Assembly (NCBI GenBank): GCA_963662625.1
Contig: OY759726.1
Span: 640,001-704,000 of the forward strand
Length of the DNA stretch: 64,000 nt
Direction of reading: 5' to 3'
From: Nitrosopumilus sp.
Lineage (GTDB): Archaea > Thermoproteota > Nitrososphaeria > Nitrososphaerales > Nitrosopumilaceae
Position 1 is the stretch's first letter, and each line of letters starts with the position of its first letter. The notes below the pieces were generated by a model that made no database searches, was not told where the DNA came from, and saw only the letters and a list, made by a program, of their open reading frames with translations. Made by a program: the position numbers and the translations under genes. Shown here one piece after another: positions 3,398 to 49,136 of the stretch.

Positions 3398-6300
3398 CTA
3401 CGTCGCCGGCGCCAGGCCTATGGCCATCGTGACCGACGAGCCGGGCGCCGGGTCGATCGCCGTGTGCACGCCCTTTATCTTGCTCGCCGCGTCCGTGGGC
3501 GAGGTCGCCACGTACCCCGCCGGGAGGGCCACCTGCGCGACCCAGTCGGCCGGCGCGATGTCGGTCTTCGACGCCGCCCCGCCGGCGCCGGTGGTGACCG
3601 CCTCCAGCTCGTTGGTGGTGTACGAGTAGACGTCGATCCTGATTCCGGGGAACGGCCCCTCGCCGGGGTCCCTGACCCCGTTGGCGTTGTCGTCCCTGTA
3701 CACCGTGGCGTACAGCGAGACGGCCTCCTCGGGCAGCACCTGGCGGAAGCCCACGTCGAAGGTGGCCGTCCCGCCCCTGGCCGGCGCCAGGTACGCGTAG
3801 AAGCTCGGCGTGGTGAGGGTGTGGTCGAACGGGAAGTAGGTGGCCTGGAGCAGCGTGAGGCGCGGCGACGGCGGTATGGCGTCAAAGGCGTACCCGCCGT
3901 CGGCGCCCGTCGTCGATTCCTGCAGGGCGCCGGTCAGCACGTCTATGGCGTACATCGCGTAGCCCGGCAGGCCGGGCTCGCCGGCGCCCTGCCTGCCGTC
4001 GCCGTCGGCGTCGGTGAAGACGGTCCCCGACAGCGTGGCGTAGACCGACGGCGACAGCGGTTCCAGCGCAAAGTCGACGGTCTGGGCGGCCCCCGGGGCC
4101 ACCGTGACCGTCCTGGAGTAGGACTGGCCCGCCGACGGGACGTGCGTGTCCGGCGCGTCCACCTGGGCGGTCCAGGGCCCGGCCGCGACGTTCGAGAAGG
4201 AATAGTACCCGCCGGCGTTGGACCTCGCGGTGTAGGTGGCCCCGGCGCCGTAGAGGGTGACGCCGGCCTCGATCCCGGCCTCCCCCGCGTCCCGGATCCC
4301 GTCGCCGTCGGAGTCGCTGAAGACCGTCCCCCGTATGGACGGGGTGGACGCGGCCCCGCGGTCCTTCCAGGCGCCGCCCTCCACCGCCCAGAGGTTGAAG
4401 CTGCGCAGCGCCAGGTCGCCGTTTGCGTCAAGCGCGTTGGGCCCCAGGGCGCCGCCCGTCCTGGCCGCGGCGGCCGCCGGCACGTGCGGGAGCACGTCCG
4501 TCCCGGTGGCGCTCTGGGCCCGGTCTATGGCCTGGCCCGCCACCCAGACGGCGTCGTAGGAGGAGTACGCGTACACCGACGGGTCCCTGCCCAGGCCGTC
4601 CCTGACGTACTTTGCGACGGCGGCCGTCGCGTCGGTGCGCTGCTCCTTGAACTGGATGGAGGTCAGCCGCGTGGACTCCGCGAACGCCAGCGCCGCCGGG
4701 TCGGCGGTGATCCTGGGGCTGTTGGCGTTCACGCCCGCGTCGAACCACTTCAGCGAGGGGAGCGCGTCCGTGGCGGCCGCGGCGGCCGACAGGCCCGCCA
4801 GCTCGGCCCACCCGAGGAAGAGCACCCCCACGCCCGAGGCGTCGGCGCGGCCCTGGACGGCGGCCTGCGCGGCCCGCGCCGTGGCCGCAAAGTCCGCCGT
4901 GCCCGGCTCGTAGGGCACCCGCGACGCCACGGTGCCGCCCCTGGCCTCGTAGGCCGCCGCGGCGGCGGCGAGCATGTCGTTCCCCCAGGTGTCGTTCCTG
5001 TATATTATCACCAGCGAGTCCGTGCCCGAGTCGACGGCGTGCTGCGCGAGCAGCGGCGCCAGGGAGGTGCTCGTCGGGCTCATCCGGAATATCCCGTCGG
5101 GCTTTGCCAGCGACGGCGCCGCCGAGCAGCAGCTCACCAGCACCATCCCGTTGGCGTTGACATAGTCGGCCACGTACTTTACGCTGGCGCTGGTCGGGAC
5201 CCCGAGCACCACGTCGACGCCCTGGGCCTTGAGGGACTGGATCTGCCTCAGCGTGGTCGGGCCGTCCAGCCCGTTGTCCTGGTACGGCGCGGCCAGCGTC
5301 CACCCCCTGCCCTGCGAGGCGAGCCACGCGTTGAGGTCGTCGACGGCCTTGGCCGACGCCAGCCTGGCCTCCTGCCCCTCCAGCTTTACGGCGGGCGCCT
5401 CGGAGAGCAGCAGCCCCACCTTGACGCTGCCTGCAAGCGGCGTTACGCACGCGCCGGTGTACGGGTGCTGCCCCTGCCCCGGCCCGCACACCCCCGTGGA
5501 GACGGATGTGCCGTCGGTGGTCGCCGCCGCCCGGACGCCGGCGTTCCCCGCCAGGTCGGAATAGTCTATCGAGAACGTGACGGGGGCGCCCAGCGACGCC
5601 AGGTCCGTGAACGTCCGCGACGCCGTCCACGCGTTCCCCTGCCCGCCGGCGGCCTGGGCCGCGGAGCCGTTGATCGTGGCCGAGGGGGCCGATATCGGCT
5701 CGGACGCCGCGAACCCCAGCGTCACGGTGTCGCCCACGGTGGCAAGGCCGGGGTCGGCGTTCGACGAGTACATGGTGACGGAGAGGAGCGACGGGGCCTG
5801 GCCGTCGGCCGCGGGGACGGTGCGGGGCCCGGCAAGCGCGTTGCCGTCGGCGTCGCGGATCCCGCCGCCCAGGGTGAGCGTCGCCGTGGCGTGGGCTGGC
5901 ACCGCGGGGCCGCCGAACGTCACCGCGGCCGAGGGGCCGGATATTGCGGCGGCCGTGGCGGTCCTGGGGCCCCCGGGCGACAGCTCCAGGCCGGTAAAGT
6001 CCGCGGCGGCGGCCGTGACGGGCTCGGTGAAGGTGACGGTTATCTGGTTGGGCCCGGTCACCGCCGAGGAGGCGTGGAGCGGCGGGAGTCCCACGTTGCT
6101 GTAGGTCACCGACGAGCCGTCCGTCGTCGCGGTCACCCGCGCCCCGGCCTGCCCGTCCAGGCCGGTATAGTCTATCGTGAACGCGACCCCGCCGTCGGCG
6201 TCGCCCTGGCCCATGGTCCTGGACGCGGTCCACTGGTTGCCCGACGGGTTGGAGACGCCGGTCACATGGATGCCGCCGATGGTCACCGTGGGGATGGCCA

Positions 6301-9300
6301 CCGTCTCGGAGGCCGTGAAGGTCACCGTGACGGCGTCCCCGACCGTGGCCTGGTACGCGCTCGTCGCGTTGTCCGACGATATGGAGACGGCGGTCAGCGC
6401 CGGCGGCTGGCCCGCCGTGGCGCGCTGGCCGCTGGCCCCCGCAAACGCGGCACCGTCGTTGTCCACCACCCCGGTGCCGATGTCGAGGATGGCCGTGGCG
6501 TCTGTGGACACGCCGGGGCCCCCAAAGGCAAGCACCAGGGTGGCCGAGCCCGAGCCGGATACCGCCGTGACGGCCCTCTGGCCCCCGGGGAAGAGCTGCA
6601 GGTTGGCAAAGTCGGAGGCGGCGGCGCGGACGCCCTCGGAGAAGACCAGCGTTATCTGGTTCGGGCCCGTGACTGCCGCGGACAGCAGCACTGGGACCTG
6701 CCCGGCGGTGACCGCGACGTTGTCCAGCGCCGTAAGCGGGTTGCGCACCAGGTCGGCCACCTGCGACGACACATCCATGACGCCAGAGGCCCCCACCGGG
6801 GCCCTGCCGCCGCCGAAGGTGAGCACTATGGTGTCGGTTCCGGAGCCCGATGCCGCCGTGACTTCCCTCATGTCCGCGCTGCCGCTCAGCCACAGGTTGG
6901 TAAAGTGCGCGGCCTCGGCGTCGACGGGTTCTGAGAACCTGACGGTGATCTCGTTGCCGTCCGTGACCGACGCGGAGACCAGCGTCGGGGGGGCCCTATT
7001 CTCGATCCTTATGGTCTTTGCCCCAAGCGCGATGTCGGCCAGGTCCTTGACGGCGGTGACCTGGACCGTCCCGGTCGTGGTGTCGGGGGCGCGACTGCCG
7101 ATGTAGGTTATGTAATGGATCGAACCGCTCAGATTCGTGTCCGTGACGTTCCTGTAGTCGTCGGTGCCCAGCACCAGCCCCGTGTAGGACGAGCCGGCGT
7201 GGGCTTTGACAGCCTCGGAGTAGGCCACGGCTATTGTCATGCCGGAGGCAAACTCCCCCCGGAGCGCGACCGGGGCCTGCCCGTCGGCCACCGGGATGCC
7301 GGGGTACCTGGCATCAGGGGCCCTCGGCTTCGTGTACCCGTCGGCATCCCCCGCGAACTTGTTGCCCGCGGCATCTGTCACCGAGTCCAGGATGTCGATC
7401 TTTGCGGTGGAGTCGGTCTTTGTGACCCTTGGGCCGTCAAAGGCAATGAGGTATGCGGATCCCGCCCCCGTGACGCCCGTGATCTTTCTGGCGTCCGGGG
7501 AGGCGCCGGGCCCGGGGATGATCCTGAGGTTGTCAAAGTCCGCCCTCGTGGCAGATACCCTCTCGGAGAACTCCGCGGTAAGCTGGTTGGGGCCGGTGAC
7601 GGACATCCTCACGGAGGGGGCCTGCCCGTCGCCGACCAGCTGGTCGTTGAGCGGCCTTATCATGTTTGGCGTGGCGGCTTTGTCGATCAGGGCAGATATG
7701 TCGATGGTCGCGTGGGAGCCGGTGGGGGCCTTGCCGCCGGCGAAGGTGAGCGTTATGGTGCTGGGGTTGGGGAAGGCGATGCCATCGACGGCCCGCGGGT
7801 GGTTGCCGTTGAGCCTCAGGTCGTAAAAGTTGTTCTCGTATGCGGTCACGGGCTCCGAGAACACCAAGGTTATCTGGTTTGCGGCCGTGATCTTGGCGGA
7901 GACCAGCTTCGGGATCTGTCCCGCCGTGACGGTGTAGGTTATGTACCCGGGCGCGTCCGGGACCCAGAGCCTGTTTCCGGCGGGATCGGAGATTCCCCCG
8001 GTGACGCCTATGGTTCCCGAGGTGCCGGTGGGCACGGCTGGGCCGCCGAAGGTAAGGTCAAGGATGGCGGAGGAGGAGTTGGTGGTGTCCGGGGATACGG
8101 AGTTGACGTTCCTGTAGCTGCCGTCGGACAGGCGGAACGACACGAACGCGGACCGTATGTCGCCGCCGGCGGGCGCCGTGACGGGCTCTGAGAACTCCGC
8201 GGTCGCCTTGTTGGGCGCGGTGATGGAGATCGACTCCAGGACGGGCGCCTGCCCGTCGCCGACCGGGATTGCGTATTTCTTGCTGGCAGTGATCGGGTAG
8301 ATTACCCCCGGATACCCCCCCGCGAACTTGTTGGCCGCCGAGCGGTCGGCTACCCGGTTTGATATGTCGATGTAGCCCTGCGCGTCGTCGCCTACGCCCT
8401 TGCCGTCAAAGGTCATGGTGTAGGTGGAGCCCGATCCCGTAAAGCTTGTGATCTCTCTTGCGTCGGTGCTGCCGGCCATGGTGCCGATCCCAAAGCCGGC
8501 AAAGTGATCCCTTGCAGCATAGACGGGCTCCGAGAACTCCGCGGTAAGCTGGTTGGGCCCGGTGACGGACATCTTCACGGTGGGGGCCTGCCCGTCTCCG
8601 ACCCGCTGATTGTCGAGATTCCCGATCGTGTTACGCGGGGTGGCGGCGTCGTAGACGCCCGTGATGTCTATGGTGGCCGTGGAGCCGGTCGGGGCCCCGT
8701 TCCCGCCGGAGTCGTCGGCAAAGGTCAGGGTGTATGTGGCGCTCGGCCCGTTGCCCGGGGATATGCCGGTGATCAACCTTGCGGTGGTGCTGCCGTCGAG
8801 CCTCAGGTCGCCGAAGTCTCCCAGCACGGCGGTGACGGGCTCGGTAAAGATCGCGGTTATTTCGTTGGGCGCGGTGATCCTGACAGAGTCCACGGCCGGG
8901 ATCTGCGCGGCCTCCACGGTTCCGCCCCTCACCGGGGCCAGCCTGTTGCCCGTGGCGTCCGCCACGCCGCTGCTGACGCTGATGGCTGCGGTCTTGCGCA
9001 CGCCTACCGGGCCCGGCGTCGTGTCGGTGCCGATGTCAAACGTGATCTTAAAGTCCGAGGCGGCTGTGCCTTCCGACACGGTGGTTATTCCCCTGGGGGC
9101 GCGCTCGCCGGAGATTGTCAGGTTCGTGACGTTGGAATAGTTGCTATTGTCCCACGCCGTTACGGTGGGTGCATTCATGCGCTCGGAGAACCTCAGTGTG
9201 ACCTGGTCGCTCTCTGTGATGCCAGCCCATTCCAGCCTCGGCGCCTGGCCGTCGTGGACTGCCGCGTTGAACTCGGTGGGGACCGGGTCGCCGGCGAGGA

Positions 9301-10636
9301 GCGCGTGCACGTTCCCCGCAACGTCGGTCAGCGAGTCCTTGACGGTGACGGTCGCCGTGGCGCCCGTGCCCACCCCGTCGCCGTCAAACGTCAGGGTGAG
9401 CGTGTCGGTGCCGGAGCCGGCGACCGCGGTGATGCTCCTGTCCTCCCGGTCGGCGGTGGTGGTGGTGTCGCCGTCGGCGTCTATCACCAGCGCGCCGAAC
9501 GTGCCCGCGCCGGCCAGGACCCGCTCCTGGGACTTTATGGTTATCGTGTTGGGGCCCGAGACCACCATGTACTTGGCGTTCGTCTCGGCGCCTTCTGCCG
9601 GGTGGTCTGCGAGAGCCGGCCTCTGGCCGTCCAATACGGCTACGTTGTATTGCTGCCTTGACGCGTTTGCTGGGGTCGCATCGTCCCTTACCGTGCCGAC
9701 GTTGACCAGGCCCGCGTCTGACACCCCCATGCCTGCACCCGAGAACGTTATGGTGGTGACTCCCGTGGAGGCATCATGGATAACGGTGTCGGGGGCACCA
9801 AGCGACTTGCCGCCTATCCTGAATGCCGAATATGCGCCGGCATCCGAGCTGTGGGGCAGGGGCTCGGACCATTCCACCTGGATCGTGTTGGGGCCCGTGA
9901 CGCGGGCGGATAGGACGTCGGGGGCCTGGGCGTCAGCCAGGTCGGTCTGGCCCCGGGAGGATTCGGCGAGCGGGTTCATGGAGACGTCCCTGATTTTGTC
10001 GGACAGTGTGATGGATCCCGTGGCGCTAGTCTTGGCATCGGTGCCGTAGAATGTTATGGTGTGCGTGTCGGTGCCGGAACCCAGGACCTTCATGATGTTC
10101 CTAGGCGTGTTGGCATGCCCGTTCTGGATTATTCCGAGGGCGGTATAGTCGGCGATTGTTGCCAGCACCCTCTCGTCATAGGTTACGGTGACCACCCTCG
10201 GGCCCGTGACGCTGGCGGACGCAAGCGAGGGCGCGAGGCCGTCGGTCGCCACGACGGACTCGTTGGTGTACGTCTTGGCGTCGTCATCCAGGGCCACCGT
10301 GCCGGTGAGCCTCACGGTGGGCGTGGCGTCCGCGTCCAGCGCGTTGCCGGAGGGCAGGACCAGGGTCGCGGTGGCGGCGCCGTCAGAGTGGGTAATTGAA
10401 GCGGGATTCACGCCGTCGACCGTGAAGGCGGCCTGGCTGGAGGTCAGGTCATCCACGCCGGCCGCGAAGGTCACCGTCACCTGCAGGTTCGCGGCGGCGT
10501 TGTCATCGGAACCTCCGGTCTGCGCCCCCTCGAGGATGTTGCCGGGGGCCGTCTGCGCGAGGGACTCGCCTGCCAGCGAGGGGGCCATGATCGCCGACGC
10601 GGCAAGGATCGCGAGCAGCGCGGCATGGGACCTCGT
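3398..10636 (-). CDS. Giant secreted protein, paralog A (Ig-like repeats + type I substrate-binding domain + 3 SdrD_B-like repeats); inferred ACG start
   Basis: 7.2-kb open frame. Signal peptide RSHAALLAILAASAIMAPSLAGESLA, repeats DGQxP...TGPNxxTxxFSE, LivJ-like domain and GTVFxDxDGDG repeats. ORF track uses an upstream TTG at 10765. Confidence 0.9.
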   Translation of the reverse strand, partial: TRSHAALLAILAASAIMAPSLAGESLAQTAPGNILEGAQTGGSDDNAAANLQVTVTFAAGVDDLTSSQAAFTVDGVNPASITHSDGAATATLVLPSGNALDADATPTVRLTGTVALDDDAKTYTNESVVATDGLAPSLASASVTGPRVVTVTYDERVLATIADYTALGIIQNGHANTPRNIMKVLGSGTDTHTITFYGTDAKTSATGSITLSDKIRDVSMNPLAESSRGQTDLADAQAPDVLSARVTGPNTIQVEWSEPLPHSSDAGAYSAFRIGGKSLGAPDTVIHDASTGVTTITFSGAGMGVSDAGLVNVGTVRDDATPANASRQQYNVAVLDGQRPALADHPAEGAETNAKYMVVSGPNTITIKSQERVLAGAGTFGALVIDADGDTTTTADREDRSITAVAGSGTDTLTLTFDGDGVGTGATATVTVKDSLTDVAGNVHALLAGDPVPTEFNAAVHDGQAPRLEWAGITESDQVTLRFSERMNAPTVTAWDNSNYSNVTNLTISGERAPRGITTVSEGTAASDFKITFDIGTDTTPGPVGVRKTAAISVSSGVADATGNRLAPVRGGTVEAAQIPAVDSVRITAPNEITAIFTEPVTAVLGDFGDLRLDGSTTARLITGISPGNGPSATYTLTFADDSGGNGAPTGSTATIDITGVYDAATPRNTIGNLDNQRVGDGQAPTVKMSVTGPNQLTAEFSEPVYAARDHFAGFGIGTMAGSTDAREITSFTGSGSTYTMTFDGKGVGDDAQGYIDISNRVADRSAANKFAGGYPGVIYPITASKKYAIPVGDGQAPVLESISITAPNKATAEFSEPVTAPAGGDIRSAFVSFRLSDGSYRNVNSVSPDTTNSSSAILDLTFGGPAVPTGTSGTIGVTGGISDPAGNRLWVPDAPGYITYTVTAGQIPKLVSAKITAANQITLVFSEPVTAYENNFYDLRLNGNHPRAVDGIAFPNPSTITLTFAGGKAPTGSHATIDISALIDKAATPNMIRPLNDQLVGDGQAPSVRMSVTGPNQLTAEFSERVSATRADFDNLRIIPGPGASPDARKITGVTGAGSAYLIAFDGPRVTKTDSTAKIDILDSVTDAAGNKFAGDADGYTKPRAPDARYPGIPVADGQAPVALRGEFASGMTIAVAYSEAVKAHAGSSYTGLVLGTDDYRNVTDTNLSGSIHYITYIGSRAPDTTTGTVQVTAVKDLADIALGAKTIRIENRAPPTLVSASVTDGNEITVRFSEPVDAEAAHFTNLWLSGSADMREVTAASGSGTDTIVLTFGGGRAPVGASGVMDVSSQVADLVRNPLTALDNVAVTAGQVPVLLSAAVTGPNQITLVFSEGVRAAASDFANLQLFPGGQRAVTAVSGSGSATLVLAFGGPGVSTDATAILDIGTGVVDNDGAAFAGASGQRATAGQPPALTAVSISSDNATSAYQATVGDAVTVTFTASETVAIPTVTIGGIHVTGVSNPSGNQWTASRTMGQGDADGGVAFTIDYTGLDGQAGARVTATTDGSSVTYSNVGLPPLHASSAVTGPNQITVTFTEPVTAAAADFTGLELSPGGPRTATAAAISGPSAAVTFGGPAVPAHATATLTLGGGIRDADGNALAGPRTVPAADGQAPSLLSVTMYSSNADPGLATVGDTVTLGFAASEPISAPSATINGSAAQAAGGQGNAWTASRTFTDLASLGAPVTFSIDYSDLAGNAGVRAAATTDGTSVSTGVCGPGQGQHPYTGACVTPLAGSVKVGLLLSEAPAVKLEGQEARLASAKAVDDLNAWLASQGRGWTLAAPYQDNGLDGPTTLRQIQSLKAQGVDVVLGVPTSASVKYVADYVNANGMVLVSCCSAAPSLAKPDGIFRMSPTSTSLAPLLAQHAVDSGTDSLVIIYRNDTWGNDMLAAAAAAYEARGGTVASRVPYEPGTADFAATARAAQAAVQGRADASGVGVLFLGWAELAGLSAAAAATDALPSLKWFDAGVNANSPRITADPAALAFAESTRLTSIQFKEQRTDATAAVAKYVRDGLGRDPSVYAYSSYDAVWVAGQAIDRAQSATGTDVLPHVPAAAAARTGGALGPNALDANGDLALRSFNLWAVEGGAWKDRGAASTPSIRGTVFSDSDGDGIRDAGEAGIEAGVTLYGAGATYTARSNAGGYYSFSNVAAGPWTAQVDAPDTHVPSAGQSYSRTVTVAPGAAQTVDFALEPLSPSVYATLSGTVFTDADGDGRQGAGEPGLPGYAMYAIDVLTGALQESTTGADGGYAFDAIPPSPRLTLLQATYFPFDHTLTTPSFYAYLAPARGGTATFDVGFRQVLPEEAVSLYATVYRDDNANGVRDPGEGPFPGIRIDVYSYTTNELEAVTTGAGGAASKTDIAPADWVAQVALPAGYVATSPTDAASKIKGVHTAIDPAPGSSVTMAIGLAPAT

Positions 10637-10637
10637 C

Positions 10638-10775
10638 TCATTCCACCCCCACGGTAGCGGCGGGCCCCGGGCCCGCGGGGACGCGGCCTGTGACGAAAGG
10701 GCCACATGGCCCGCATCCTGCCGCGGCGTGCGGAACTGTTTTTGCGGGTCCCGTCGCCATGTCAAATCCCCTCAT
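10638..10775 (-). CDS. Leader ORF, 45 aa with CGPC motif, upstream of paralog A
   Basis: MRGFDMATGPAKTVPHAAAGCGPCGPFVTGRVPAGPGPAATVGVE*. ATG about 23 nt below TTTTAATA. Same position as the B/C leader ORFs. Confidence 0.6.
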   Translation of the reverse strand: MRGFDMATGPAKTVPHAAAGCGPCGPFVTGRVPAGPGPAATVGVE

Positions 10776-10797
10776 GGTGGTCTAGTGTAGTAATCAG

Positions 10798-10805
10798 TAT
10801 TAAAA
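10798..10805 (-). promoter_or_regulatory. TATA box for the paralog A transcript
   Basis: TTTTAATA on the minus strand at canonical distance from ATG 10775. Confidence 0.6.
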
Positions 10806-10827
10806 CCACTGCATTCACTAGCTGCAA

Positions 10828-10905
10828 GAGGTCACGTATGCTGACCGTTTAACCAACAAGGCGCGATCCTGCTGATCCTTATGGCAGGAGGTGCTAGTAC
10901 GTGCG
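10828..10905 (+). mobile_element. Left end of an IS66-like element
   Basis: Near match to the reverse complement of about 53510-53587 (GAGGTCACGTATGCTGACC...). Confidence 0.65.
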
Positions 10906-12138
10906 TGCGTACATGCACGGGAAGGAGGGCAGATCCATACGCCAGACGGGCAGGCTGCTCAACAGGCCGTACTCCACGGTGCGCAGGTGGCTCCTGCATG
11001 CCGTGGAGAGCGGCGGCATGTCCGGCAGGCATGACGCGGCGCCGCCCGGCGCCCCCTGCAGGCGGGACGCCTCCCAGCTCAGGGAGCTCAGGGCGGACCT
11101 GGTGGCCGGGCCCAGGAGGTGCGGCCTGGAGTCCGGGGCGCGGGCCGCGCCGCTCGTCGTGCGGCACGTGCAGGACAGGTTCGGCGTGCGGCACGGCGAC
11201 CGCGGCATGTACGACCTACTGGTGAGGCCGGGCTTCCCGCGCGGGAAGCCCGGGCCCGGGCACCCCAAACCGGCCTCGGAAAGCGCGAAGGCCGGGTTCA
11301 AAAAAAAGCGGCGGGCGCCGCCAGGCGGTACGCCGTCCTCGCCGGGACGAGTCCTCCCACATAATCGGGCGGGACGCCAGGAACGGCTGGTACCCGAGGG
11401 GCAGGGAGGCCGCCACGCCGGTCAGCCCCTCCAGGGAAAGGTCCTGCCCGTTCGGGGCGCGATCCGGGAACTGGTCCGGCTGCAGGTCCTGCGACGAGGC
11501 AAACGGTGACAGCTTCACGGGCTTTCTCTCGTACCTGCACGGGAAGCACGGTAAGTTCGTGATGCCCGTGGACAACGCGAGCTACCGCAAGTCCAAGAAG
11601 TTGGACTTGTGCCATGACGCGTTGCCTGCGGACACGGGCACCTTGCCGAACCTCCTGCGCACCCTGCCCTGAAACCTTATGGACGTAGTTACGGTGTTAA
11701 ATATTGGATCATCTTGACGGTCTTGACCACCCCGCTGCCAGGCATGGCCCGTATCGGCTCCTGCATCTCCCCCGTGCCGTCGTGCAGGACGTTGGACGTG
11801 CCGTGCCTGATCCCCTTCCACTGTACCTCTGCCGGGTTCAGCTCCGGCGTGTAGGGCGGGGAAGTACTCCAGCACCACGTCGCCCTTGAACCCGTCCAGC
11901 GCCCCTGCCAAGGCGGTGCTGCGCCACGTGGGGGAGTGCGGGGACGTCCGGCTGGAGCACTTTCCCCCGCACGCCCCGGAGCTTGACGGCGCCAGGGTGC
12001 AGTGGAGGGTGGCGGGGAACTCCATGGGCAAACCGCCTGTACGCGGACGGCGGGGAGGCCGTGGGGCCCATACGCGCCATGATCCGCAAGAGGGAGATCG
12101 TTCCGGTCAAAATGAACGATTGCTTGATGTGTTGACTA
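10905..12138. mobile_element. Nested decayed IS630-family fragments in both orientations
   Basis: Winged-HTH ORF A homologous to 50258-50830, A-run frameshift site at 11300, DNASYRKS and LEHFPPHAPEL motifs. Inverted end TACGGTGTTAAATATTGGATCA at 11690 and end GTTGACTA at 12131-12138. Confidence 0.8.
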
Positions 12139-12423: not shown

Positions 12424-15400
12424 CTACGGCGACGCCGCCAGGCCTATCAGCATGGTGACCGACGAGCCGGGGGCCGGGTCGACTGCCGTGTAGGCGCCTG
12501 CCACCCCGGTCACGGGGTCGGCCGGGGCCGTCGCGACATAGCCGGCCGGCGGGTACGCCTGCGCCTGCCAGTTGGCCGGCAGCAGGTCCGTCTTCGTGGC
12601 CACGCCGTCGTCGCCGGTGGTTATGGCGTCTATCGTGTTGATGGTGTACGAGTAGATCTGGACCTGCGCCCCCGGGAACGCGGCCTCGCCGGCGTCCCTG
12701 ATGCCGTTGGCGTTGGCGTCCATGTAGGCGGTCACCGACAGGGACACCCGCTCGGACTGCGGCACGGGGTAGAAGCCGACGTCGAACGTCTCGACTGCGC
12801 GCCTCTCCGGGGTGACGTACGAGTAGAAGGCGTCCGTGCTCAGGGTGTGGCCCGGCGGGAAGTAGCCCGTCTGGACCAGCGTGAGGCGCGGCGCCGGCGC
12901 TATGCTGTCGAAGGCGTACGTGCCGTCGGGGCCGGTCGTGGCGGTCACCGACTGGCCGGACAGCGCGTCGATGGCGTACATCGTGTAGCCTGCCATGCCG
13001 GCCTCGCCGGAGCCCCGCGTGCCGTCGCCGTCGGCGTCCACGAAGACCGTCCCGGTGACGGTGGCGTAGTTGGACGCCGAGAGCGGCTCCAGCGCAAAGT
13101 CGACCGTCTGGGTGGCGCCCGCCGCCACGGTCACCGTCTCGAAGAAGGACTGGCCCACGGACGGGACGTGCGTGGCCGGCATGGCCACCTGGACTGTCCA
13201 GTCGCCGCCCGCCACGGCCGAGAAGGAGTAGTACCCGCCGGCGTTGGACCTGGAGGTGTACGAGGTGGAGCCGTTGAACAGCGTCACGTCTGCCTCGATG
13301 CCCGCCTCGAGCGCGCCCTTCGCGCCGTTGCCGTCGGCGTCGCTGAAGACGGTCCCCTGCACGGACGGGGTGGACACGGTGCCCAGGTCCTTCCAGGCGC
13401 CGCCCTGGACAGCCCAGAGGTTGTAGTTGCTCAGTGCCAGGTCGCCGTTGGCGTCCAGCGTGTTGGGGCCGATGGCGCCGCTGGTCCTGGACGCGGCCAC
13501 CGCGGGGACGTGCGGGAGCACGTCCGTCCCGGTGGCGCTCTGGGCCCGGTCTATGGCCATCCCGGCCACCCAGACGGCGTCGTACGCGGAGTACGCGTAG
13601 GTCGTCGGGTCCCTGCCGAGGTTCTCCCTGACGTGTTCCATCACCTCGACGGTCTTGTCGGTGCGCTGCTCCTTGAAGTGGATGGAGGTCATGCCGGTGG
13701 AGGTGGCAAAGGCGAGCGCCGTCGCGTCGGTGACGATGTTCTGGTTGTTTGCGTTCTGGCCAGCGTCGAACCACGTCAGCGAGGGGAGCGTGTCCGTGGT
13801 GCTCGCGGCGGCCGACAGGCCCACGAGTTTTTCCACCCCGATGAAGAGCACCCCCACTCCGGAGGTGTCGTCGAGTCCCGCGGCCGCAGTCTCCGCCTCG
13901 GCCGCAGTCTCCGCAAAGTCCGTCGTGCCCGGGTCGTACGCCACCTGGGCGATCACGGAGCCTCCCCTTGCCTGGTATGACGCCGTCACGGCGTCAAGGA
14001 GCCCGGCGCCCCAGGTGTCGTCCCTGTATATGATTACCAGCGAGTTCTTGCCCGAGTCCACGATGTGCTGGGCGAGGATCGGCGCGTGCGAGACGCTGGT
14101 GGGGCTCATCCGGAAGACGTTGTCGGGCTGTGCCAGTGATGGCGCCTCCGAGCAGCAGCTCACCAGCACCATCCCGTTGGTGTTGACATAGTCCATGACG
14201 TAACCGACGCTGGAGCTGAAAGGCACTCCGAGCACCACGTCTGTGCCCTCGTCCCTGAGGGCCTGCACCTGCGCCAGCGTGGTCGCGCTGTCAAATTTGG
14301 TGTCGGTGTACGGCGCCACGAGCGTCCAGTCCCTGCCCTGGTCTGCCAGCCACTGGTTAAAGTCGGTCACGGCCTTTGCGGAAGTCAGTATGGTCTCCTC
14401 ACCTGCCAACTTAAATCCCTCTGCGTCAGAGAGCAGCAGCCCCACCTTGACGTTGCCGGCAAGCGGGGTTATGCACTGGCTGGTGTACGGGTGCGGCTCC
14501 TGCCCCGGCGGGCACTGGCCCGTGGAGACGGCGCTGCCGTCGGTGGTGGACACCACCCGGACCCCCTGGTTCATGGAGTCGTCGGCATAGTCCACCGAGA
14601 ACGTTATGGAGGCGCCCAGCGACGCCGCGTCGGTGAAGGTCCGCGCCGCCGTCCACTGGTTGCCCGATGCGTTGGAGGCCTGGACGGTGGAGCCGTTCAT
14701 GGAGACTATGGGGTCGGAGATCGGCTCGGACGCCGTGAAGCTCAGGGTCACCGTGTCGCCCACGGTTGCAAAGCCCGGGTCGTCGTTGGACGACGCCAGG
14801 CCCACGAACGGCAGCGACGGGGCCTGCCCGTCGGCGGCGGCGACGTTGAGCGGCCCGGCAAACATGTTGCCGTCGGCGTCCGTGATGCCGGAGCCCACGG
14901 TGACTGACGCCGTGGCGTAGGCCGGGACCGCGGCGCCGCCGAAGGTCACCGTGACGGAGGAGCCTGCGCTGGCGGCGCCGGTGACGTTCCTGACGCCGCC
15001 CGGTATCAGGGTCATGTTGGCAAAGTCAGCCGCGGAAGCCGTCACGGGCTCGGTGAATGTCACCGTGACGGAGTTGGGCCCGGTCACCGCCGAGGAGACG
15101 TGCAGCGGCGAGAGCCCCACGTTGCTGTAAAAGACCGACGAGCCGTCGGTGGTGGCCGTCGCCCGCGTGCCGTCGTTGCCGTCCATGTCTGAATAGTCGA
15201 TCGTGAAGGCGAGCCTGCCGTCGGTGTCGCCCTGCTGCATCACCCTGGAGGCGGTCCACTGGTTGCCCGTCAGGTTGTAGACGCTGTCGGCGGCGTTGCC
15301 GTCGATGGTGACCGCCGGGAGCGATATCGCCTCGGACGCCGTGAAGCCCAGGGTCACCGTGTCGCCCACGGTGGCCTGCGAGGCGTTTGTCTGGTTGTCG

Positions 15401-18400
15401 GAGGACATGGTGACGCTGGACAGCGCTGGCGGCTGTCCCGCCTCCGCCCTGTAGCCCGTGACGGCCACGAACGCGGTGCCGTCGTTGTCCACGATTCCCG
15501 TGGTGACGTCCAGCAGGGCGGTCGCCGCCGTGGACACGGCGGGGCCGTCAAACGTGAGCGTTATGGTGTCCGTGCCGGAGCCCGAGACCGCCGTGACGCT
15601 CCTGGGGCCCCCCGGGAATAGCTGCAGGTTGGCAAACGCCGAGGCGCCGGCGGTGACCCCCTCGGAGAAGGCCACGGTTATCTGGTTCGGGCCCGTGACG
15701 GCCGCGGACACCAGGACTGGCACCTGCCCGGCGGCCACCATGTAGCCGGTCTTTGGCGAAAGGGCGTTTCCTATCAGGTCGGCTATGGAATCCGACACGT
15801 CCATCTGGCCGGAGGTCCCCACGGGGGCCTTGGGGCCGTCAAACGTGAGCGTTATGGTGTCCGTGCCGGAGCCGGCGGCGCCGGTGACGTTCCTGGGATC
15901 GACGGCGTCGCCCACCACCAGACCGGTAAAGTCCGCGGCAGACGCCGTCACGGGCTCGGAGAATGTCACCGTGACCCGGTCGCTGCCGGTGATCCTGGCG
16001 GACAGAAGGGTCGGGTCGCCCATCGCTTCCACCTTTATGCTCCCTGCCTCGAGCGCGATGTCGGCCAGGTCCTTGACGCCGGTGACGTTGTTGATCACCC
16101 CGGTGGTGGACCGGTCCACGTCGTCGCCCGTGAAGAGCAGCTGGTGCGTCGCGGTCGTGAACTGCCCGCCAGCAGGGTCCCTGTTGTCGTTGGCGCCAAA
16201 CACCAGGTCGGGGTAGGAGGTCACCGCGTTGGCGGTCACGCCCTCAGAGTACACGATCTTTATGGAGTTGGCGTCGGCGAACTCCCCGCGGAGCACCAGC
16301 GGGGCCTGCCCGTCGGAGACCGGCACCCCGGCGAACTTGCCCTCCGTCTGGGGGGTCTTGGTGCCGTCGGCGGAGAATCCCGCAAACGCGTTCTGGCCGC
16401 GCGAGGTGTCCGATATGCCGGCCATTATGTCGATCTTGGCGGTGGCGTCGGTCCCTACCGCGTCGCCGTCGAAGGCCATGGTGTACGTGGAGCCCGATCC
16501 GGCGAATCCCGTGATCTTCCTTGCCTCGTCCTCGTAGAGGACGTTGTTGCTGCTGTCGGTGCCCGCGGCGATCATGAGGCCGTCAAAGTCCGCCAGTTCA
16601 GTGGCGACCGGCTCGGTGAACTCCGCCGTCAGCTGGTTGGGGCCGGTGATCGACACCGTCACCCTCGGCGGCTGCCCGTCCTCTACCGCCTTGTCCTGGA
16701 GGGGCTTTAGCGTGTTCCGCGGGGAGGCGTTGTCGATCGGGCCCGCTATGTCCACGGTCGCGACCGCGTCGGTCCCCACCGGGTCCCCGTCGAAGGTCAG
16801 CTCGACCGCGGCGGCGATAGTGGAGACGTTCGTGACGGCCCTCGCCGTGGGGCTGCCGTCGATCCTCAGGTCGGTGTAGTCGCCCGGAAACGTGCTTACG
16901 CTCTCGGAGAACTCCACGGTCAGCTGGTTGGGGCCGGTCACTTTGGCGGAGAGCACCGTCGGGATCTGCCCCGCCTTGACGGCGTAGTTGACGTACCCGG
17001 GCGGGCTCGGCACCTGGAACGCGTTTCCTGACGTGTCCTCGATTCCGCCGGTGACGTTTACCGTCCCGCTGGTGCCGGTTGGCACGCCCGTGCCGCCGAA
17101 GGTCAGCTTGATGGAGGCTGACGGCTCACTCGTCACATCGTTGATGTTGCGGAAGTTGCCGTCGGACAGGCGGAACGCCACGAACGCGGACTTGAGGTCG
17201 CCGCCGTCGGGCTCTTTGACCGCTTCGGAGAACTTTGCGGTCACCTGGTTGGGCCCGGTGATGGAGATCGACTCCAGGGCGGGCGCCTGGCCGTCGCCGA
17301 CCGGGACGTCCGCGTACTTGCCGGCGACGGGCTCGGTGGCGGCGCCGTCACCGTCACGGACCACGAACTTGTTGCCCGCCGGCCTGTCGGCCACCTTGCC
17401 GGAGATGTCGACGTAGCCGGTCGCGTCGTCGGCGACGGGGTCGCCGTTGAAGGCCATGGTGTACGTGGAGCCCGATCCCGCGAATCCCGTGATCTTCCTC
17501 GCTTCCCCGCCGGTGGTGGGGCCGATCGTGAGGCCGTCAAAGTCCGCCATCCTCGCGATGACCGGCTCGGTGAACTCCGCCGTCAGCTGGTTGGGGCCGG
17601 TGATCGACAGCTCCACCTCCGGCCGCTGCCCGTCGGACACCGGCTGGTTGTCGATGTCGACTTTTCCGATGGCGTTGGGGGGAGTCGCGCCGTCTACCAC
17701 GCTCTTTGAGATGTCTATGGTGGCCGTGGCGCCCGTGCCCACCTTGTCGCCGCCGAAGGTCAGGGTGTATGTGGCGCTCGGCCCGTTGCCCGGGGATATG
17801 CCGCTGAGCGTTCTTGCGGTGGCGCTGCCGTCGATCCGCAGGTCGTTGAAGTCTCCCTGCACTGCGGTGACGGACTCGGTGAACACCACGGTCACCTGGT
17901 CGGGGCCGGTGATCTCTATGGACTTGACCGCCGGCCTCTGCGAGGCGTCCACGGCGACCCCCGACCTCGCGACGATCGGGTTGCCCTTGGAGTCCAGCAC
18001 GCCTTTGCCCACGCTGATGGTGCCGGTGCTGTCGGCCGGGGCGCTAGCAAGGGGCGGGACGTCGTCGTTGGAACCAAAGGTGATGTCGTAGGCGTTTGGA
18101 ATGGAGGAGTGGGCGGCGGCGCTGGTCAGGGTACTGGCCGTGCGCTGGCCCGTGACCAGGAAGTCGGTGATGTTGGTCAGAACGCCGCCGGTGGTGGCGG
18201 TGATGGTGCCGCCACCCATGGCCTCGGAGAACGTCACGGTGACTTTGTTGGCTGTGGTGATACCCGCCGACACCAGGGTGGGCGCCTGGCCGTCGTAGAC
18301 TGCCACGTCGGTGACCTGGGCGGGGACCGGGTCGCCGGCGAGGAGCGCGTGCACGTTCCCCGCAACGTCGGTCAGCGAGTCCTTGACGGTGACGGTCGCC

Positions 18401-19683
18401 GTGGCGCCCGTGCCCACCCCGTCGCCGTCAAACGTCAGGGTGAGCGTGTCGGTGCCGGAGCCGGCGACCGCGGTGATGCTCCTGTCATCCTGGTCGGCGG
18501 TGGTGCTGGTGTCGCCGTCGGCGTCTATCACCAGCGCGCCGAACGTGCCCGCGCCGGCCAGGACCCGCTCCTGGGACTTTATGGTTATCGTGTTGGGGCC
18601 CGAGACCACCATGTACTTGTCGTCCGTCTCGGCGCCTTCTGCCGGGTGGTCTGCGAGAGCCGGCCTCTGGCCGTCGGTCACTATCACGTTCAGCCGCGCG
18701 GCCGAGTCGTTCGCAGACGTCGCGTCGTCTGACACCACGCCTACGTTGAGGAGGCCCGTGGCCGAGACTTTCAACGCGGTGCCGGTCGCCAGCGTTAGCG
18801 TGGTGGTGCCGTTAAGATGGGTGGCGCCGTCGTTGGCAAGCGTCACTATCTTGCCGTCAATCCTGATGTTGGTATAGTCCTCAGCCGTATCGCTCGCGTC
18901 GGACAGGGTTTCGGACCATTTCACCTGGATCTTGTCGGTGCCCGTGACCGTGGCCGACACGACGTACGGGGCCTGGGCATCAATCAAATCCTGCTCGGGG
19001 ACCGCGGCCAGCTCGTTCGTGGCAAGGTCGGCCACGCCGCCGGAGATGGCTATAGTCCCACTGGCCCCGGTCGAGGCCGGGGTGCCGTAGAAGGTTATGG
19101 TGTGCGTGTCGGTGCCGGAGCCCGAGAGCTTCATGATGTTCCTGGGCAGGTCAGTGGCGCCCTCGACGCCCTGGTTTATCTCCAGGGTGGTATAGTCGGT
19201 AATCTTTGCGACCACCCTCTCGTCGTACTTTACGGTGACCTTGTTCGGGCCGGTGACCGCGGTACCCGCGGCGACGACGCTGGGCTTGACGCCGTCGGTC
19301 GCCACGACGGACTCGTTGGTGTACGTCTCGGTGGCGTCGTCAGCCAGGTTTATCTCGCCGACCAGCCTCACGAGCGGGGTTGCAGAGGCGTCGAACGCGT
19401 CGGCATTAGCTATGGTCAGGGTGGCGCTGAGGTTATTCGTAGCATTCTCAACGCCGGTGGTAGCGGCACCGTTGACCGTAAAGTCAGCAGTGTCACTTAT
19501 GTTATCTGCCACTGCGGCCGCAAAGGTGACTATCACGGTGGTCTTGCTGGTGTTGTCCGCGCCGCCGGTCACCGCGGACTTGAGGATGCTGTCGGGGGCC
19601 GTCTGCGCGAAGGACTCGCCTGCCAATGAGAAAGCGGACACCATTGACACCGCGAGTATCGCGAAGAGTACCGTGTTGTTCAT
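12424..19683 (-). CDS. Giant secreted protein, paralog B (2419 aa)
   Basis: Signal peptide MNNTVLFAILAVSMVSAFSLAGESFA. Same domain architecture as A. Confidence 0.93.
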   Translation of the reverse strand: MNNTVLFAILAVSMVSAFSLAGESFAQTAPDSILKSAVTGGADNTSKTTVIVTFAAAVADNISDTADFTVNGAATTGVENATNNLSATLTIANADAFDASATPLVRLVGEINLADDATETYTNESVVATDGVKPSVVAAGTAVTGPNKVTVKYDERVVAKITDYTTLEINQGVEGATDLPRNIMKLSGSGTDTHTITFYGTPASTGASGTIAISGGVADLATNELAAVPEQDLIDAQAPYVVSATVTGTDKIQVKWSETLSDASDTAEDYTNIRIDGKIVTLANDGATHLNGTTTLTLATGTALKVSATGLLNVGVVSDDATSANDSAARLNVIVTDGQRPALADHPAEGAETDDKYMVVSGPNTITIKSQERVLAGAGTFGALVIDADGDTSTTADQDDRSITAVAGSGTDTLTLTFDGDGVGTGATATVTVKDSLTDVAGNVHALLAGDPVPAQVTDVAVYDGQAPTLVSAGITTANKVTVTFSEAMGGGTITATTGGVLTNITDFLVTGQRTASTLTSAAAHSSIPNAYDITFGSNDDVPPLASAPADSTGTISVGKGVLDSKGNPIVARSGVAVDASQRPAVKSIEITGPDQVTVVFTESVTAVQGDFNDLRIDGSATARTLSGISPGNGPSATYTLTFGGDKVGTGATATIDISKSVVDGATPPNAIGKVDIDNQPVSDGQRPEVELSITGPNQLTAEFTEPVIARMADFDGLTIGPTTGGEARKITGFAGSGSTYTMAFNGDPVADDATGYVDISGKVADRPAGNKFVVRDGDGAATEPVAGKYADVPVGDGQAPALESISITGPNQVTAKFSEAVKEPDGGDLKSAFVAFRLSDGNFRNINDVTSEPSASIKLTFGGTGVPTGTSGTVNVTGGIEDTSGNAFQVPSPPGYVNYAVKAGQIPTVLSAKVTGPNQLTVEFSESVSTFPGDYTDLRIDGSPTARAVTNVSTIAAAVELTFDGDPVGTDAVATVDIAGPIDNASPRNTLKPLQDKAVEDGQPPRVTVSITGPNQLTAEFTEPVATELADFDGLMIAAGTDSSNNVLYEDEARKITGFAGSGSTYTMAFDGDAVGTDATAKIDIMAGISDTSRGQNAFAGFSADGTKTPQTEGKFAGVPVSDGQAPLVLRGEFADANSIKIVYSEGVTANAVTSYPDLVFGANDNRDPAGGQFTTATHQLLFTGDDVDRSTTGVINNVTGVKDLADIALEAGSIKVEAMGDPTLLSARITGSDRVTVTFSEPVTASAADFTGLVVGDAVDPRNVTGAAGSGTDTITLTFDGPKAPVGTSGQMDVSDSIADLIGNALSPKTGYMVAAGQVPVLVSAAVTGPNQITVAFSEGVTAGASAFANLQLFPGGPRSVTAVSGSGTDTITLTFDGPAVSTAATALLDVTTGIVDNDGTAFVAVTGYRAEAGQPPALSSVTMSSDNQTNASQATVGDTVTLGFTASEAISLPAVTIDGNAADSVYNLTGNQWTASRVMQQGDTDGRLAFTIDYSDMDGNDGTRATATTDGSSVFYSNVGLSPLHVSSAVTGPNSVTVTFTEPVTASAADFANMTLIPGGVRNVTGAASAGSSVTVTFGGAAVPAYATASVTVGSGITDADGNMFAGPLNVAAADGQAPSLPFVGLASSNDDPGFATVGDTVTLSFTASEPISDPIVSMNGSTVQASNASGNQWTAARTFTDAASLGASITFSVDYADDSMNQGVRVVSTTDGSAVSTGQCPPGQEPHPYTSQCITPLAGNVKVGLLLSDAEGFKLAGEETILTSAKAVTDFNQWLADQGRDWTLVAPYTDTKFDSATTLAQVQALRDEGTDVVLGVPFSSSVGYVMDYVNTNGMVLVSCCSEAPSLAQPDNVFRMSPTSVSHAPILAQHIVDSGKNSLVIIYRDDTWGAGLLDAVTASYQARGGSVIAQVAYDPGTTDFAETAAEAETAAAGLDDTSGVGVLFIGVEKLVGLSAAASTTDTLPSLTWFDAGQNANNQNIVTDATALAFATSTGMTSIHFKEQRTDKTVEVMEHVRENLGRDPTTYAYSAYDAVWVAGMAIDRAQSATGTDVLPHVPAVAASRTSGAIGPNTLDANGDLALSNYNLWAVQGGAWKDLGTVSTPSVQGTVFSDADGNGAKGALEAGIEADVTLFNGSTSYTSRSNAGGYYSFSAVAGGDWTVQVAMPATHVPSVGQSFFETVTVAAGATQTVDFALEPLSASNYATVTGTVFVDADGDGTRGSGEAGMAGYTMYAIDALSGQSVTATTGPDGTYAFDSIAPAPRLTLVQTGYFPPGHTLSTDAFYSYVTPERRAVETFDVGFYPVPQSERVSLSVTAYMDANANGIRDAGEAAFPGAQVQIYSYTINTIDAITTGDDGVATKTDLLPANWQAQAYPPAGYVATAPADPVTGVAGAYTAVDPAPGSSVTMLIGLAASP

Positions 19684-19684
19684 C

Positions 19685-19807
19685 CTAGATCATGCCCTCC
19701 ATAGTTCCTATGGGTGGCAGACTCTCAAAAATGCCCTCTGCTGGGGGCGTGCAACGCTTGCATTCCGCCACGGTACGTGGCACTAGTACATTGAATTCCG
19801 CTTTCAT
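19685..19807 (-). CDS. Leader ORF, 40 aa with CKRC motif, upstream of paralog B
   Basis: MKAEFNVLVPRTVAECKRCTPPAEGIFESLPPIGTMEGMI*. ATG about 25 nt below TTTTATATA, and TAG-G-ATG junction with B. Confidence 0.6.
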   Translation of the reverse strand: MKAEFNVLVPRTVAECKRCTPPAEGIFESLPPIGTMEGMI

Positions 19808-19831
19808 GTTAGACTTACGTATGGAATTGAG

Positions 19832-19840
19832 TATATAAAA
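19832..19840 (-). promoter_or_regulatory. TATA box for the paralog B transcript
   Basis: TTTTATATA, also present upstream of C (48984-48992). Confidence 0.65.
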
Positions 19841-19986
19841 GTAGTGTTAAAAATTGCGGCGGCCTGGGATCGGAATGCGGGTTTTTTCATCCTGTGCCAA
19901 ACACGGACAGCTTGCGCTCCCGGCAGATGCAGGAGGCTGCAGGGCCGGGCCGGGGATCTCGCCGCCACGTTCTGCCGGGCCTTCCA

Positions 19987-20118
19987 TAGTCAACGCACTG
20001 TCTACTCGTTCATTTTAGGCGTAATGGGTTCCTTTTCGAGCATGATGACGGGCATGAATTCTTCCACATGGTACGTGTTGGCGGCTCGCCGTTGGACGAT
20101 TTCATAATGCGCTGACTA
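19987..20118. mobile_element. 132-bp MITE, probably IS630-derived
   Basis: Terminal IRs TAGTCAACGCA / TGCGCTGACTA. Second copy at 49236-49368, and the end matches the IS630 end at 12110-12138. Confidence 0.7.
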
Positions 20119-48836: not shown

Positions 48837-48959
48837 CTAGATCATGCCCTCCATAGTTCCTATGGGTGGCAGACTCTCAAAAATGCCCTCTGCTGGGGGC
48901 GTGCAACGCTTGCATTCCGCCACGGTACGTGGCACTAGTACATTGAATTCCGCTTTCAT
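48837..48959 (-). CDS. Leader ORF, 40 aa CxxC, upstream of paralog C
   Basis: Identical to 19685-19807; TATA at 48984-48992. Confidence 0.6.
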   Translation of the reverse strand: MKAEFNVLVPRTVAECKRCTPPAEGIFESLPPIGTMEGMI

Positions 48960-49136
48960 GTTAGACTTACGTATGAAAGTGAGTATATAAAAGTGCATTG
49001 AAATCATTTCACACTATTGTCAACGTGTGCCACTCGGGCGGCGGCGCGGGCGGGATCCCACGTCCCGGGCGGCGGCCGGGGGCCGGCGATCGCCGGAGTC
49101 GGGCCGGCGCTCCCCCCGGCGCCGGATCCGGGCCCG

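Follow-up and report, generated by a model that had tools for sequence, protein, structure and literature searches.

A 64,000-nt stretch of a Nitrosopumilus sp. genome (assembly GCA_963662625.1, contig OY759726.1, positions 640,001 to 704,000), referred to here as the window and numbered from its first letter, contains three paralogous giant genes on its minus strand, A, B and C, encoding about 2400 aa each, and a short open reading frame (ORF) lies between a TATA box and the main start of every one of them. This layout raises the question of how ribosomes reach the start of the giant gene, and whether the short ORF matters through its peptide or through the act of being translated. The short-ORF feature is real and is conserved within one genus. 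The favoured reading, at a probability of roughly 0.5, is that the 40 codons are translated as a leaderless upstream ORF, that termination-reinitiation couples them to the giant gene, and that their translation possibly opens a hairpin across the main start. The genome to which the window belongs is complete, with 1.86 Mb and 63% G+C; related records are titled Thaumarchaeota and Nitrosopumilaceae. The window shows the following giant genes, promoters and upstream ORFs:

3398-10636, minus strand: giant gene A, about 2412 aa counted from an ACG codon, with an intact frame.
12424-19683, minus strand: giant gene B, 2419 aa, with a signal peptide, Ig-like repeats, a periplasmic-binding/ANF_receptor domain and SdrD_B domains.
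41570-48835, minus strand: giant gene C, 2421 aa, a mosaic of B and one A-like tract.
10798-10805, minus strand: TATA-like box of copy A, TTTTAATA, 22 nt ahead of the first ATG.
10638-10775, minus strand: upstream ORF of copy A, 45 codons plus TGA, or 40 codons if the second ATG (10760) is used.
10634-10636, minus strand: ACG of copy A, at the position that matches the main ATG of B and C, one nt past the upstream stop and in the giant's frame.
19832-19839, minus strand: TATA box of copy B, TTTATATA, 24 nt ahead of the ATG of the upstream ORF; conservation between species begins at this box.
19685-19807, minus strand: upstream ORF of copy B, MKAEFNVLVPRTVAECKRCTPPAEGIFESLPPIGTMEGMI, 40 codons plus TAG, with orthologous ORFs in two other species (G001 and G002).
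48984-48991, minus strand: TATA box of copy C, TTTATATA, 24 nt ahead of the ATG of the upstream ORF; the sequence is the same as in B from the box on.
48837-48959, minus strand: upstream ORF of copy C, 40 codons, identical to that of copy B.

The original prediction, made on the letters of this DNA, had described short ORFs of 40-45 aa as a leader ahead of every giant paralog, and all three, of 45, 40 and 40 aa, are present on the minus strand. The leaders of B and C are 100% identical from the TATA box onward, so the window holds only two independent sequences, not three. The junction of B and C contains TAG, one base (g) and then the ATG of the giant, as had been predicted for all copies, and copy A departs from it with TGA-g-ACG, in which the ACG is in the giant's frame and is not a canonical start. 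The ATG nearest to the junction of A (10639-10641) belongs to the third frame, and no ATG, GTG or TTG was found in the frame of giant A between 10717 and the signal peptide.

The position of the short ORFs relative to their promoters is the one shown by ordinary genes of this genome. Genome-wide, ATGs that open at least 100 codons pile up 20-24 nt after the pattern TTTWWWWW, and after TTTAWAWA the peak is at 22-23 nt, a spacing shown by 18 of the 26 such ATGs that lie at 20-26 nt. Leaderless starts are, judging from this TATA-ATG spacing, the norm in this genome. The ATG of the short ORF is located 22 nt from the TATA box in A and 24 nt in B, C, G001 and G002; the TATA box that had been predicted ahead of each short ORF is thus present and is spaced as for the long ORFs of the genome. 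Because the spacing matches the long-ORF start peak, the short-ORF AUGs should lie at the 5' end of the mRNA or 1-2 nt from it. No conserved TATA-like box was seen 22-33 nt ahead of the main ATG in the sequences of B, G001 and G002.

A search with the N-terminus of the giant found one orthologue in each of two further species of the genus, and the layout recurs in both:

G002 leader: ATG 24 nt past the TATA box; short ORF MKAEFNRLVPLIPARYSYCPRAEGIFVSLPPVAFTTMEGMI; junction TAG, a, ATG.
G001 leader: ATG 24 nt past the TATA box; short ORF MKAECNVLVPRIVAANYFEAYCTEGIFVNLSALQDMGGMI; junction TAA, g, ATG.

The short ORFs of G001 and G002 have 40-41 codons, followed by one spacer base and the ATG of a homologous signal peptide. 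The frame, the 5'-terminal ATG and the succession of stop, one nt and ATG are kept in these two species, and the CxxC motif, which like the frame had been expected to be conserved in further homologs, is not; a translational-coupling leader, one of the functions proposed originally, is the best-supported reading. The metagenome contig L053 also shows this layout, with a G001-type leader. Identity between species is mostly 60-87% across a segment (about -165 to +85) that opens with the TATA box and closes with the signal peptide, falls to only 20-45% in the flanks and the mature protein, and is 35% in the N-terminal 300 aa of the giant. Since conservation is confined to this segment, promoter, leader and signal peptide form one conserved module before a fast-evolving protein. 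L053 and G001 (L038) agree letter for letter over promoter, leader and signal peptide, starting with the TATA box, and are unrelated upstream of it. As B and C of the window show the same pattern, the TATA box marks the beginning of the unit that was duplicated or converted.

Searches for further cases of the leader found none beyond these. A blastn search of 301 genomes of the family with the leader matched four (G000, G001, G002 and G019); the G019 match, 25 nt at E 0.002, was taken as noise, which leaves genus g1 only. The covariance model R1, run on 151 genomes of the family, found its training sequences (genus g1) and three matches at E 0.5-1, taken as noise, and did not detect copy A. 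A metagenome scan with the DNA pattern of the signal peptide found 11 loci, 10 of them unrelated bacterial-looking genes and the other L053. A scan of genome contigs with the peptide pattern found three stretches out of 44 that encode a relative: two belong to the G001 and G002 contigs and the third to a Nitrosotalea metagenome-assembled genome. The Nitrosotalea protein (L056, 950-1060, plus strand) contains fibronectin-type repeats and a near-identical signal-peptide end, FLAGESFAQT, and is otherwise unlike the giants; its apparent start is a TTG about 25 nt past a TATA-like box, and no upstream ORF precedes it. Surface proteins across the family may have the cleavage-site motif in common. 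A giant of G003 was considered as a further case and discarded, since the match is internal to a 5172-aa ORF and uninformative on the leader.

Of the six frames, only that of the short ORF is free of stops throughout the four distinct sequences (A, B, G001 and G002). The gaps between B and G002 are of 3 and 6 nt, both multiples of three, and the stop is held at exactly the same place through a change from TAG to TAA. By chance, the frame would be open in B with a probability of 0.16, and it would survive the 41 substitutions that separate B from G001 with one of 0.25 and the 27 that separate B from G002 with one of 0.46; beyond what these estimates take in, the 5'-terminal start and the position of the stop are conserved as well. 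The leader of copy A has 70% G+C, most of its frames are open or nearly so, and a composition-matched shuffle stays open 42% of the time, so the open frame of A carries little weight by itself.

The 3' half of the short ORF is predicted to fold onto the main start. In the RNAalifold consensus, GGCAUUUUUG... pairs with ...AUGAU(C/U)UA(G/A)(G/A)AUG, and the resulting hairpin takes in a GGAGG motif, the stop and the main AUG:

19681-19733, minus strand: predicted hairpin of copy B, in which CAUUUU pairs with the stop, spacer and main AUG; -22 kcal/mol, z -3.7, reached by 0 of 200 shuffles.
10631-10698, minus strand: predicted hairpin of copy A, in which CGU pairs with ACG; -37.9 kcal/mol, z -1.5, 15 of 200 shuffles fold as well, not significant.
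Predicted hairpin of G002: -24 kcal/mol, z -3.2.
Predicted hairpin of G001: -16 kcal/mol, z -1.3.
19696-19700, minus strand: GGAGG, complementary to the 3' end of the 16S rRNA, 12 nt ahead of the main ATG and within the upstream ORF.

Pairing of the region from -20 to +3 was reached by two of 200 shuffles in B and by five of 200 in G002. In the consensus structure 94% of the cells are paired, a figure that no shuffle reached, and in helices 5 and 6, located over the main start, seven pairs are altered on one side yet wobble-compatible and three cells are broken. Support from covariation for the hairpin over the main start is suggestive only, as it comes from three sequences and the structure was derived from these same sequences. 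Folding of the whole leader gave a z of only -1.6 in B and -1.5 in A. The Shine-Dalgarno (SD)-like motif 12 nt ahead of the main AUG is GGAGG in B, C and G002 and GGGGG in G001; the 16S 3' end reads ...GGATCACCTCCT / ...GGAUCACCUCCU and contains the anti-SD CCUCC.

Termination-reinitiation coupling would join these elements as follows. Transcription would start about 22-24 nt past the TATA box, to judge from promoter spacing, and the AUG of the short ORF, at or next to the 5' end, would be a normal ribosome entry point in this archaeon. The ribosome would translate the 40 codons, melting the predicted hairpin between the 3' half of the short ORF and the main-start region, would terminate at UAG or UAA one base ahead of the giant's AUG, and would re-initiate at this AUG, perhaps aided by the GGAGG. 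The act of translating the short ORF would then matter and the sequence of its peptide would not, and CxxC would be incidental.

Several observations weigh against this coupling. The transcription start is placed by spacing only, and the independent sequences at species level are only three, to which copy A, itself very divergent, can be added. In G001 and A the hairpin lacks significance, and the region from -20 to +3 is not unusually paired (66 and 38 of 200 shuffles, respectively); the pairing probability of the start codon itself, 0.42-0.85, is often matched by shuffles, and helices 5 and 6 show no double compensatory change. The distance from GGAGG to the AUG is more than usual, and SD-like motifs before the starts of adjacent ORF pairs show no enrichment (189 of 547, against 171 and 170 of 547 in controls) in what is a crude test, made on a noisy ORF set with many spurious long ORFs in a G+C-rich genome. 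Giant A keeps a frame of about 2400 codons (7.2 kb) open despite its ACG, so that either re-initiation tolerates ACG or the coupling model fails for A. Within the first 10 codons, three of the four codons changed between B and G001 are synonymous, which hints that the N-terminal part of the peptide may be constrained after all.

The leader could instead be an untranslated structured 5' untranslated region (UTR), involved in stability or regulation, or the conserved 5' cassette of a variable surface-protein family, with the open frame incidental; we regard this as unlikely. Differences per codon position are flat (6/11/10, 14/13/14 and 14/13/11), with no third-position excess, and conservation is seen at the nucleotide level, in a single block from promoter through leader to signal peptide. 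In B and G002 the local hairpin reaches significance, and the B leader, with 53% G+C against 63% in the genome, resembles non-coding DNA in composition. The paralogs swap tracts by gene conversion, and a 5' block could serve recombination. A conserved promoter, 5' leader and signal peptide before a mature protein that varies and is exchanged among paralogs are known from mycoplasma vsp/vlp and like families, which are bacterial and share with the giants the combination of conserved 5' block and variable protein; we know of no conserved upstream ORF in leaders of the vsp/vlp type. An untranslated leader is harder to reconcile with an AUG 0-2 nt from the 5' end, which would be used in a genome whose long ORFs start at that spacing, and with the single frame open in all four sequences, the indels in multiples of three and the stop kept through TAG to TAA. 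A match to an Rfam family is also absent: Rfam 15 gave 0 matches at E up to 1 in 19500-20000 and 10450-10950 of the window.

Another possibility is that the peptide itself is functional, either as a nascent chain that stalls the ribosome near the stop (C-terminus M-E/G-G-M-I) or at Cys codons and senses a metabolite or the redox state, or in trans as a partner of the surface protein. Three species keep an N-terminal block, MKAE(F/C)N(V/R)LVP, and a C-terminal block, EGIF...M(E/G)GMI, and the synonymous bias in the first 10 codons points the same way. A and B/C share VP...A.C..C.P...G, with a score of 33 for this frame pair and of at most 27 for the other eight, and each peptide has one or two Cys. 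The A and B peptides align better ungapped from the second ATG of A, with 40 codons each and 10 identical residues out of 40, among them V-P, both Cys, P and G; this similarity is marginal, its score being reached by 147 of 5000 shuffles, and the similarity of the A and B leaders as DNA is not significant (450 of 2000 shuffles). The motifs reported at first as kept between A and B/C hold in part: C-x-x-C-x-P is shared, the spacing of P..TV differs (P-A-K-T-V in A, P-R-T-V in B), and M[KR]..F[DN] aligns only with a gap. Leaders that arrest the nascent peptide, such as SecM or TnaC, have a conserved C-terminal arrest motif; here M(E/G)GMI-stop is found in three species, copy A ends in TVGVE, and the nucleotides that encode M(E/G)GMI also form the hairpin and GGAGG. 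A precedent for Cys sensing is given by the cysteine-sensing leaderless short ORFs of mycobacteria (10.1101/834739).

Most of the evidence on the peptide goes the other way, and a functional peptide is in our view distinctly unlikely. Within the leader, the 30 nt that contain the CxxC codons are the least conserved, with 37-47% identity against 80-83% and 67-87% in the flanking windows. CxxC is present only in A and B/C: G002 has one Cys (ARYSYCPRAEG) and G001, AANYFEAYCTEG, has two Cys 17 residues apart. The sensing of metals or of the redox state by CxxC, proposed originally, is not borne out by this pattern. The short ORF has no Cys-codon run and the downstream gene is unrelated to cysteine metabolism, neither terminal block is present in copy A, no overall third-position excess was found, and the peptide has no hydrophobic segment able to monitor secretion. 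No peptide homologue was found among proteins of 22-70 aa, the range to which the peptide searches were limited, in a protein collection that does not include the short ORFs. Pfam-A gave 0 families for three of the four peptides and only a chance-level match for the fourth (E 0.14), under the cutoff. These negatives, with the even distribution of differences over codon positions, also leave the suggested role as a small cofactor of the surface protein unsupported. As far as can be judged from the sequences, the short-ORF peptide looks weakly constrained.

The ACG of copy A leaves several options: re-initiation at ACG, a silent donor copy for gene conversion, or a base-call error. It also bears on the idea that the short ORF is the true N-terminus of the giant, joined to it by a programmed +1 shift at the stop and giving the kind of extended signal peptide known from very large secreted proteins. 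In all four sequences the giant is read in the +1 frame relative to the short ORF; copy A lacks a start codon at the junction, where a shift would require none; and one giant of a second family, described below, has a 5'-proximal ATG in the main frame that adds 28 aa. Nevertheless, the junction ATG and a normal signal peptide are kept in three species, the codons before the stop (AUC, AUU and GAA) would, by reasoning only, re-pair poorly in the +1 frame, and a signal peptide starting at residue 42 would be unusual. A +1 shift is therefore very improbable.

Oligo-T is a termination signal for archaeal RNA polymerases, and the short ORF contains a conserved T5 run (GGCATTTTTG) that is invariant in B, G001 and G002. 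The leader could thus be a transcription attenuator, whose terminator is passed when a ribosome trails the polymerase. However, the run is wholly absent from copy A, T5 is short, and Ile-Phe codons or pairing with the main-start region explain it equally well, which leaves this explanation with hardly any probability.

A genome-wide scan was made for the layout, defined as a TATA box, an ATG 14-37 nt on that opens 20-70 codons, and a stop at most 8 nt from a start that opens at least 200 codons. It gave 17 rows, corresponding to 12 distinct main ORFs, and the six longest are giants B and C and four giants (F1-F4) of an unrelated FG-GAP-like family (1504-2731 aa). All members of this family, given here in positions of G000:C1, lie outside the window:

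117263, minus strand: main start of an FG-GAP-like giant.
1325283, plus strand: main start of an FG-GAP-like giant.
1421760, plus strand: main start of an FG-GAP-like giant.
1429271, plus strand: main start of an FG-GAP-like giant.
1598929, plus strand: opening of the ORF of a fifth FG-GAP-like member (F5), with a 5'-proximal ATG in frame with the giant, adding 28 aa.

The four giants all begin with MLK, and their upstream ORFs contain 35-39 codons and end in TGC-TGA across the main ATG. The starts of this family are located 100-145 nt past strong TATA boxes. Over the last 110 nt the upstream frame is free of stops, and the other two frames show 1-3 stops, except one frame of F3, which shows none. 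The ATG of the upstream ORF is 17 nt from the TATA box in F1 and 29-33 nt in F2-F4; the latter spacing implies a 5' UTR of roughly 5-10 nt, not strictly none. No clear orthologues of F1-F5 were found in G001 or G002, and the FG-GAP giants of G001 differ in their N-termini and upstream regions. About 11 ORFs of at least 1500 aa were judged plausible genes (our own judgement, without gene calls), and six of them show the layout, plus A with ACG. A wider view is that in this leaderless-type thaumarchaeon giant secreted-protein genes are, as a rule, translated not from their own start but through an obligatory short ORF, at the mRNA 5' end or a few nt from it, that loads ribosomes and hands them over at its stop, that two unrelated families acquired this layout independently, and that it is robust enough for the ACG start of A; this view is possible and at present doubtful.

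The proteins and the surroundings of the genes show some further features. The signal peptide of each giant ends in LAGES(F/L)AQT, and Pfam matches in the giants are to Big_5, Peripla_BP_6/ANF_receptor, SdrD_B and CarboxypepD_reg domains. Giant C is 100% identical to B along most of its length, shows 99% identity to A and 50% to B at nt ~150-300 of the gene, and departs from B (79-97%) at nt ~5250-6450; at nt ~1050-1350 A, B and C are 98-99% identical. These mosaic tracts look like gene conversion among surface-protein paralogs. The B/C leader (19685-19839) has 53% G+C, the genome 63% and the giants 67-68%, and the orthologous leaders have 41-49% in G001 and G002, so base composition at the giant-gene locus seems to vary widely among the three species of the genus. 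An ORF at 10901-11506 (plus strand), divergent from copy A, gives weak helix-turn-helix matches (HTH_33 and HTH_23), both under the Pfam cutoffs, and may be a transposase-like or regulator remnant. Antisense coding was also considered for the leaders, which contain 48-aa plus-strand ORFs at 10706-10852, 19692-19838 and 48844-48990, with non-equivalent starts in A and B. It was ruled out: each antisense frame of the leader is stopped in at least one of the four sequences, and the conserved antisense frame ends just inside the leader in G001, so that these ORFs look like coincidence.

How genes with long 5' leaders are translated in archaea that rely on leaderless initiation is poorly understood, and a conserved 5'-terminal short ORF that abuts the starts of giant surface-protein genes would offer a concrete case in which ribosome hand-over can be tested. 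If the wider view is true, a long, structured and possibly long-lived leader could coexist with leaderless initiation, and the flux of ribosomes onto 7-kb messages would be set or regulated by the short ORF. The interest would grow should the tie to giant surface-protein genes hold more generally. For annotation, it is relevant that the short ORFs are missing from the protein collection searched and that giant A lacks a canonical start at the conserved position.

The original prediction knew of no description of such an arrangement, which is too strong, since precedents exist in mycobacteria (10.1101/834739) and in Haloferax volcanii (PMC10117724). In full-text searches, no report was found that links upstream ORFs, leader peptides or leaderless short ORFs to Thaumarchaeota or Nitrosopumilus. 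In Haloferax volcanii, ribosome profiling revealed novel small ORFs within 5' UTRs, located a few nt at most from the neighbouring gene or reaching into it, which their authors liken to upstream ORFs and leader peptides (PMC10117724). The giant-gene leader resembles these small ORFs. They belong to another phylum, no function is shown for them and no link to giant secreted proteins is stated in the passage on them, and the evidence for the giant-gene leader is comparative only.

The closest described system is the mycobacterial leaderless short-ORF attenuator, in which leaderless short ORFs control downstream genes (10.1101/834739). The polycysteine ORFs of mycobacteria and those of the window are short, unannotated and located upstream of a main gene at the 5' end of the mRNA, a position that in the window follows from promoter spacing. 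In mycobacteria the downstream ribosome-binding site is said to be masked by an RNA duplex, and the hairpin predicted here is significant only in B and G002; ribosomes on the mycobacterial short ORF decide downstream expression, a likeness to the role proposed here (10.1101/834739). The mycobacterial ORFs are bacterial and need a run of Cys codons, whereas the archaeal ones have at most two Cys, separated and non-conserved; the former control cysteine-metabolism genes and the latter precede a 2400-aa secreted surface protein with Ig-like, periplasmic-binding and SdrD_B domains (10.1101/834739). Because the Cys run and the cysteine-metabolism targets both fail, the giant-gene leader is not an attenuator of this type, and its stop abuts the main start, which suggests re-initiation rather than stalling. 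Termination-reinitiation coupling has been demonstrated in Haloferax volcanii, and SD motifs serve re-initiation in archaea that seldom use them for de novo initiation (PMC6728339). The coupled pairs of that archaeon, whose mRNAs are mostly leaderless, are ORFs on the same strand with stop and start overlapping or a few nt apart, an arrangement also shown by B, C, G001 and G002, and contain an SD-like motif in the upstream ORF, to which the GGAGG or GGGGG of the leaders would correspond (PMC6728339). They consist of ordinary protein genes with overlapping stop and start (PMC6728339); in the giant-gene leader the upstream partner has just 40 codons, its peptide looks weakly constrained, and a spacer of 1 nt separates stop and start. 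The giant-gene leader resembles termination-reinitiation coupling and may be an instance of it.

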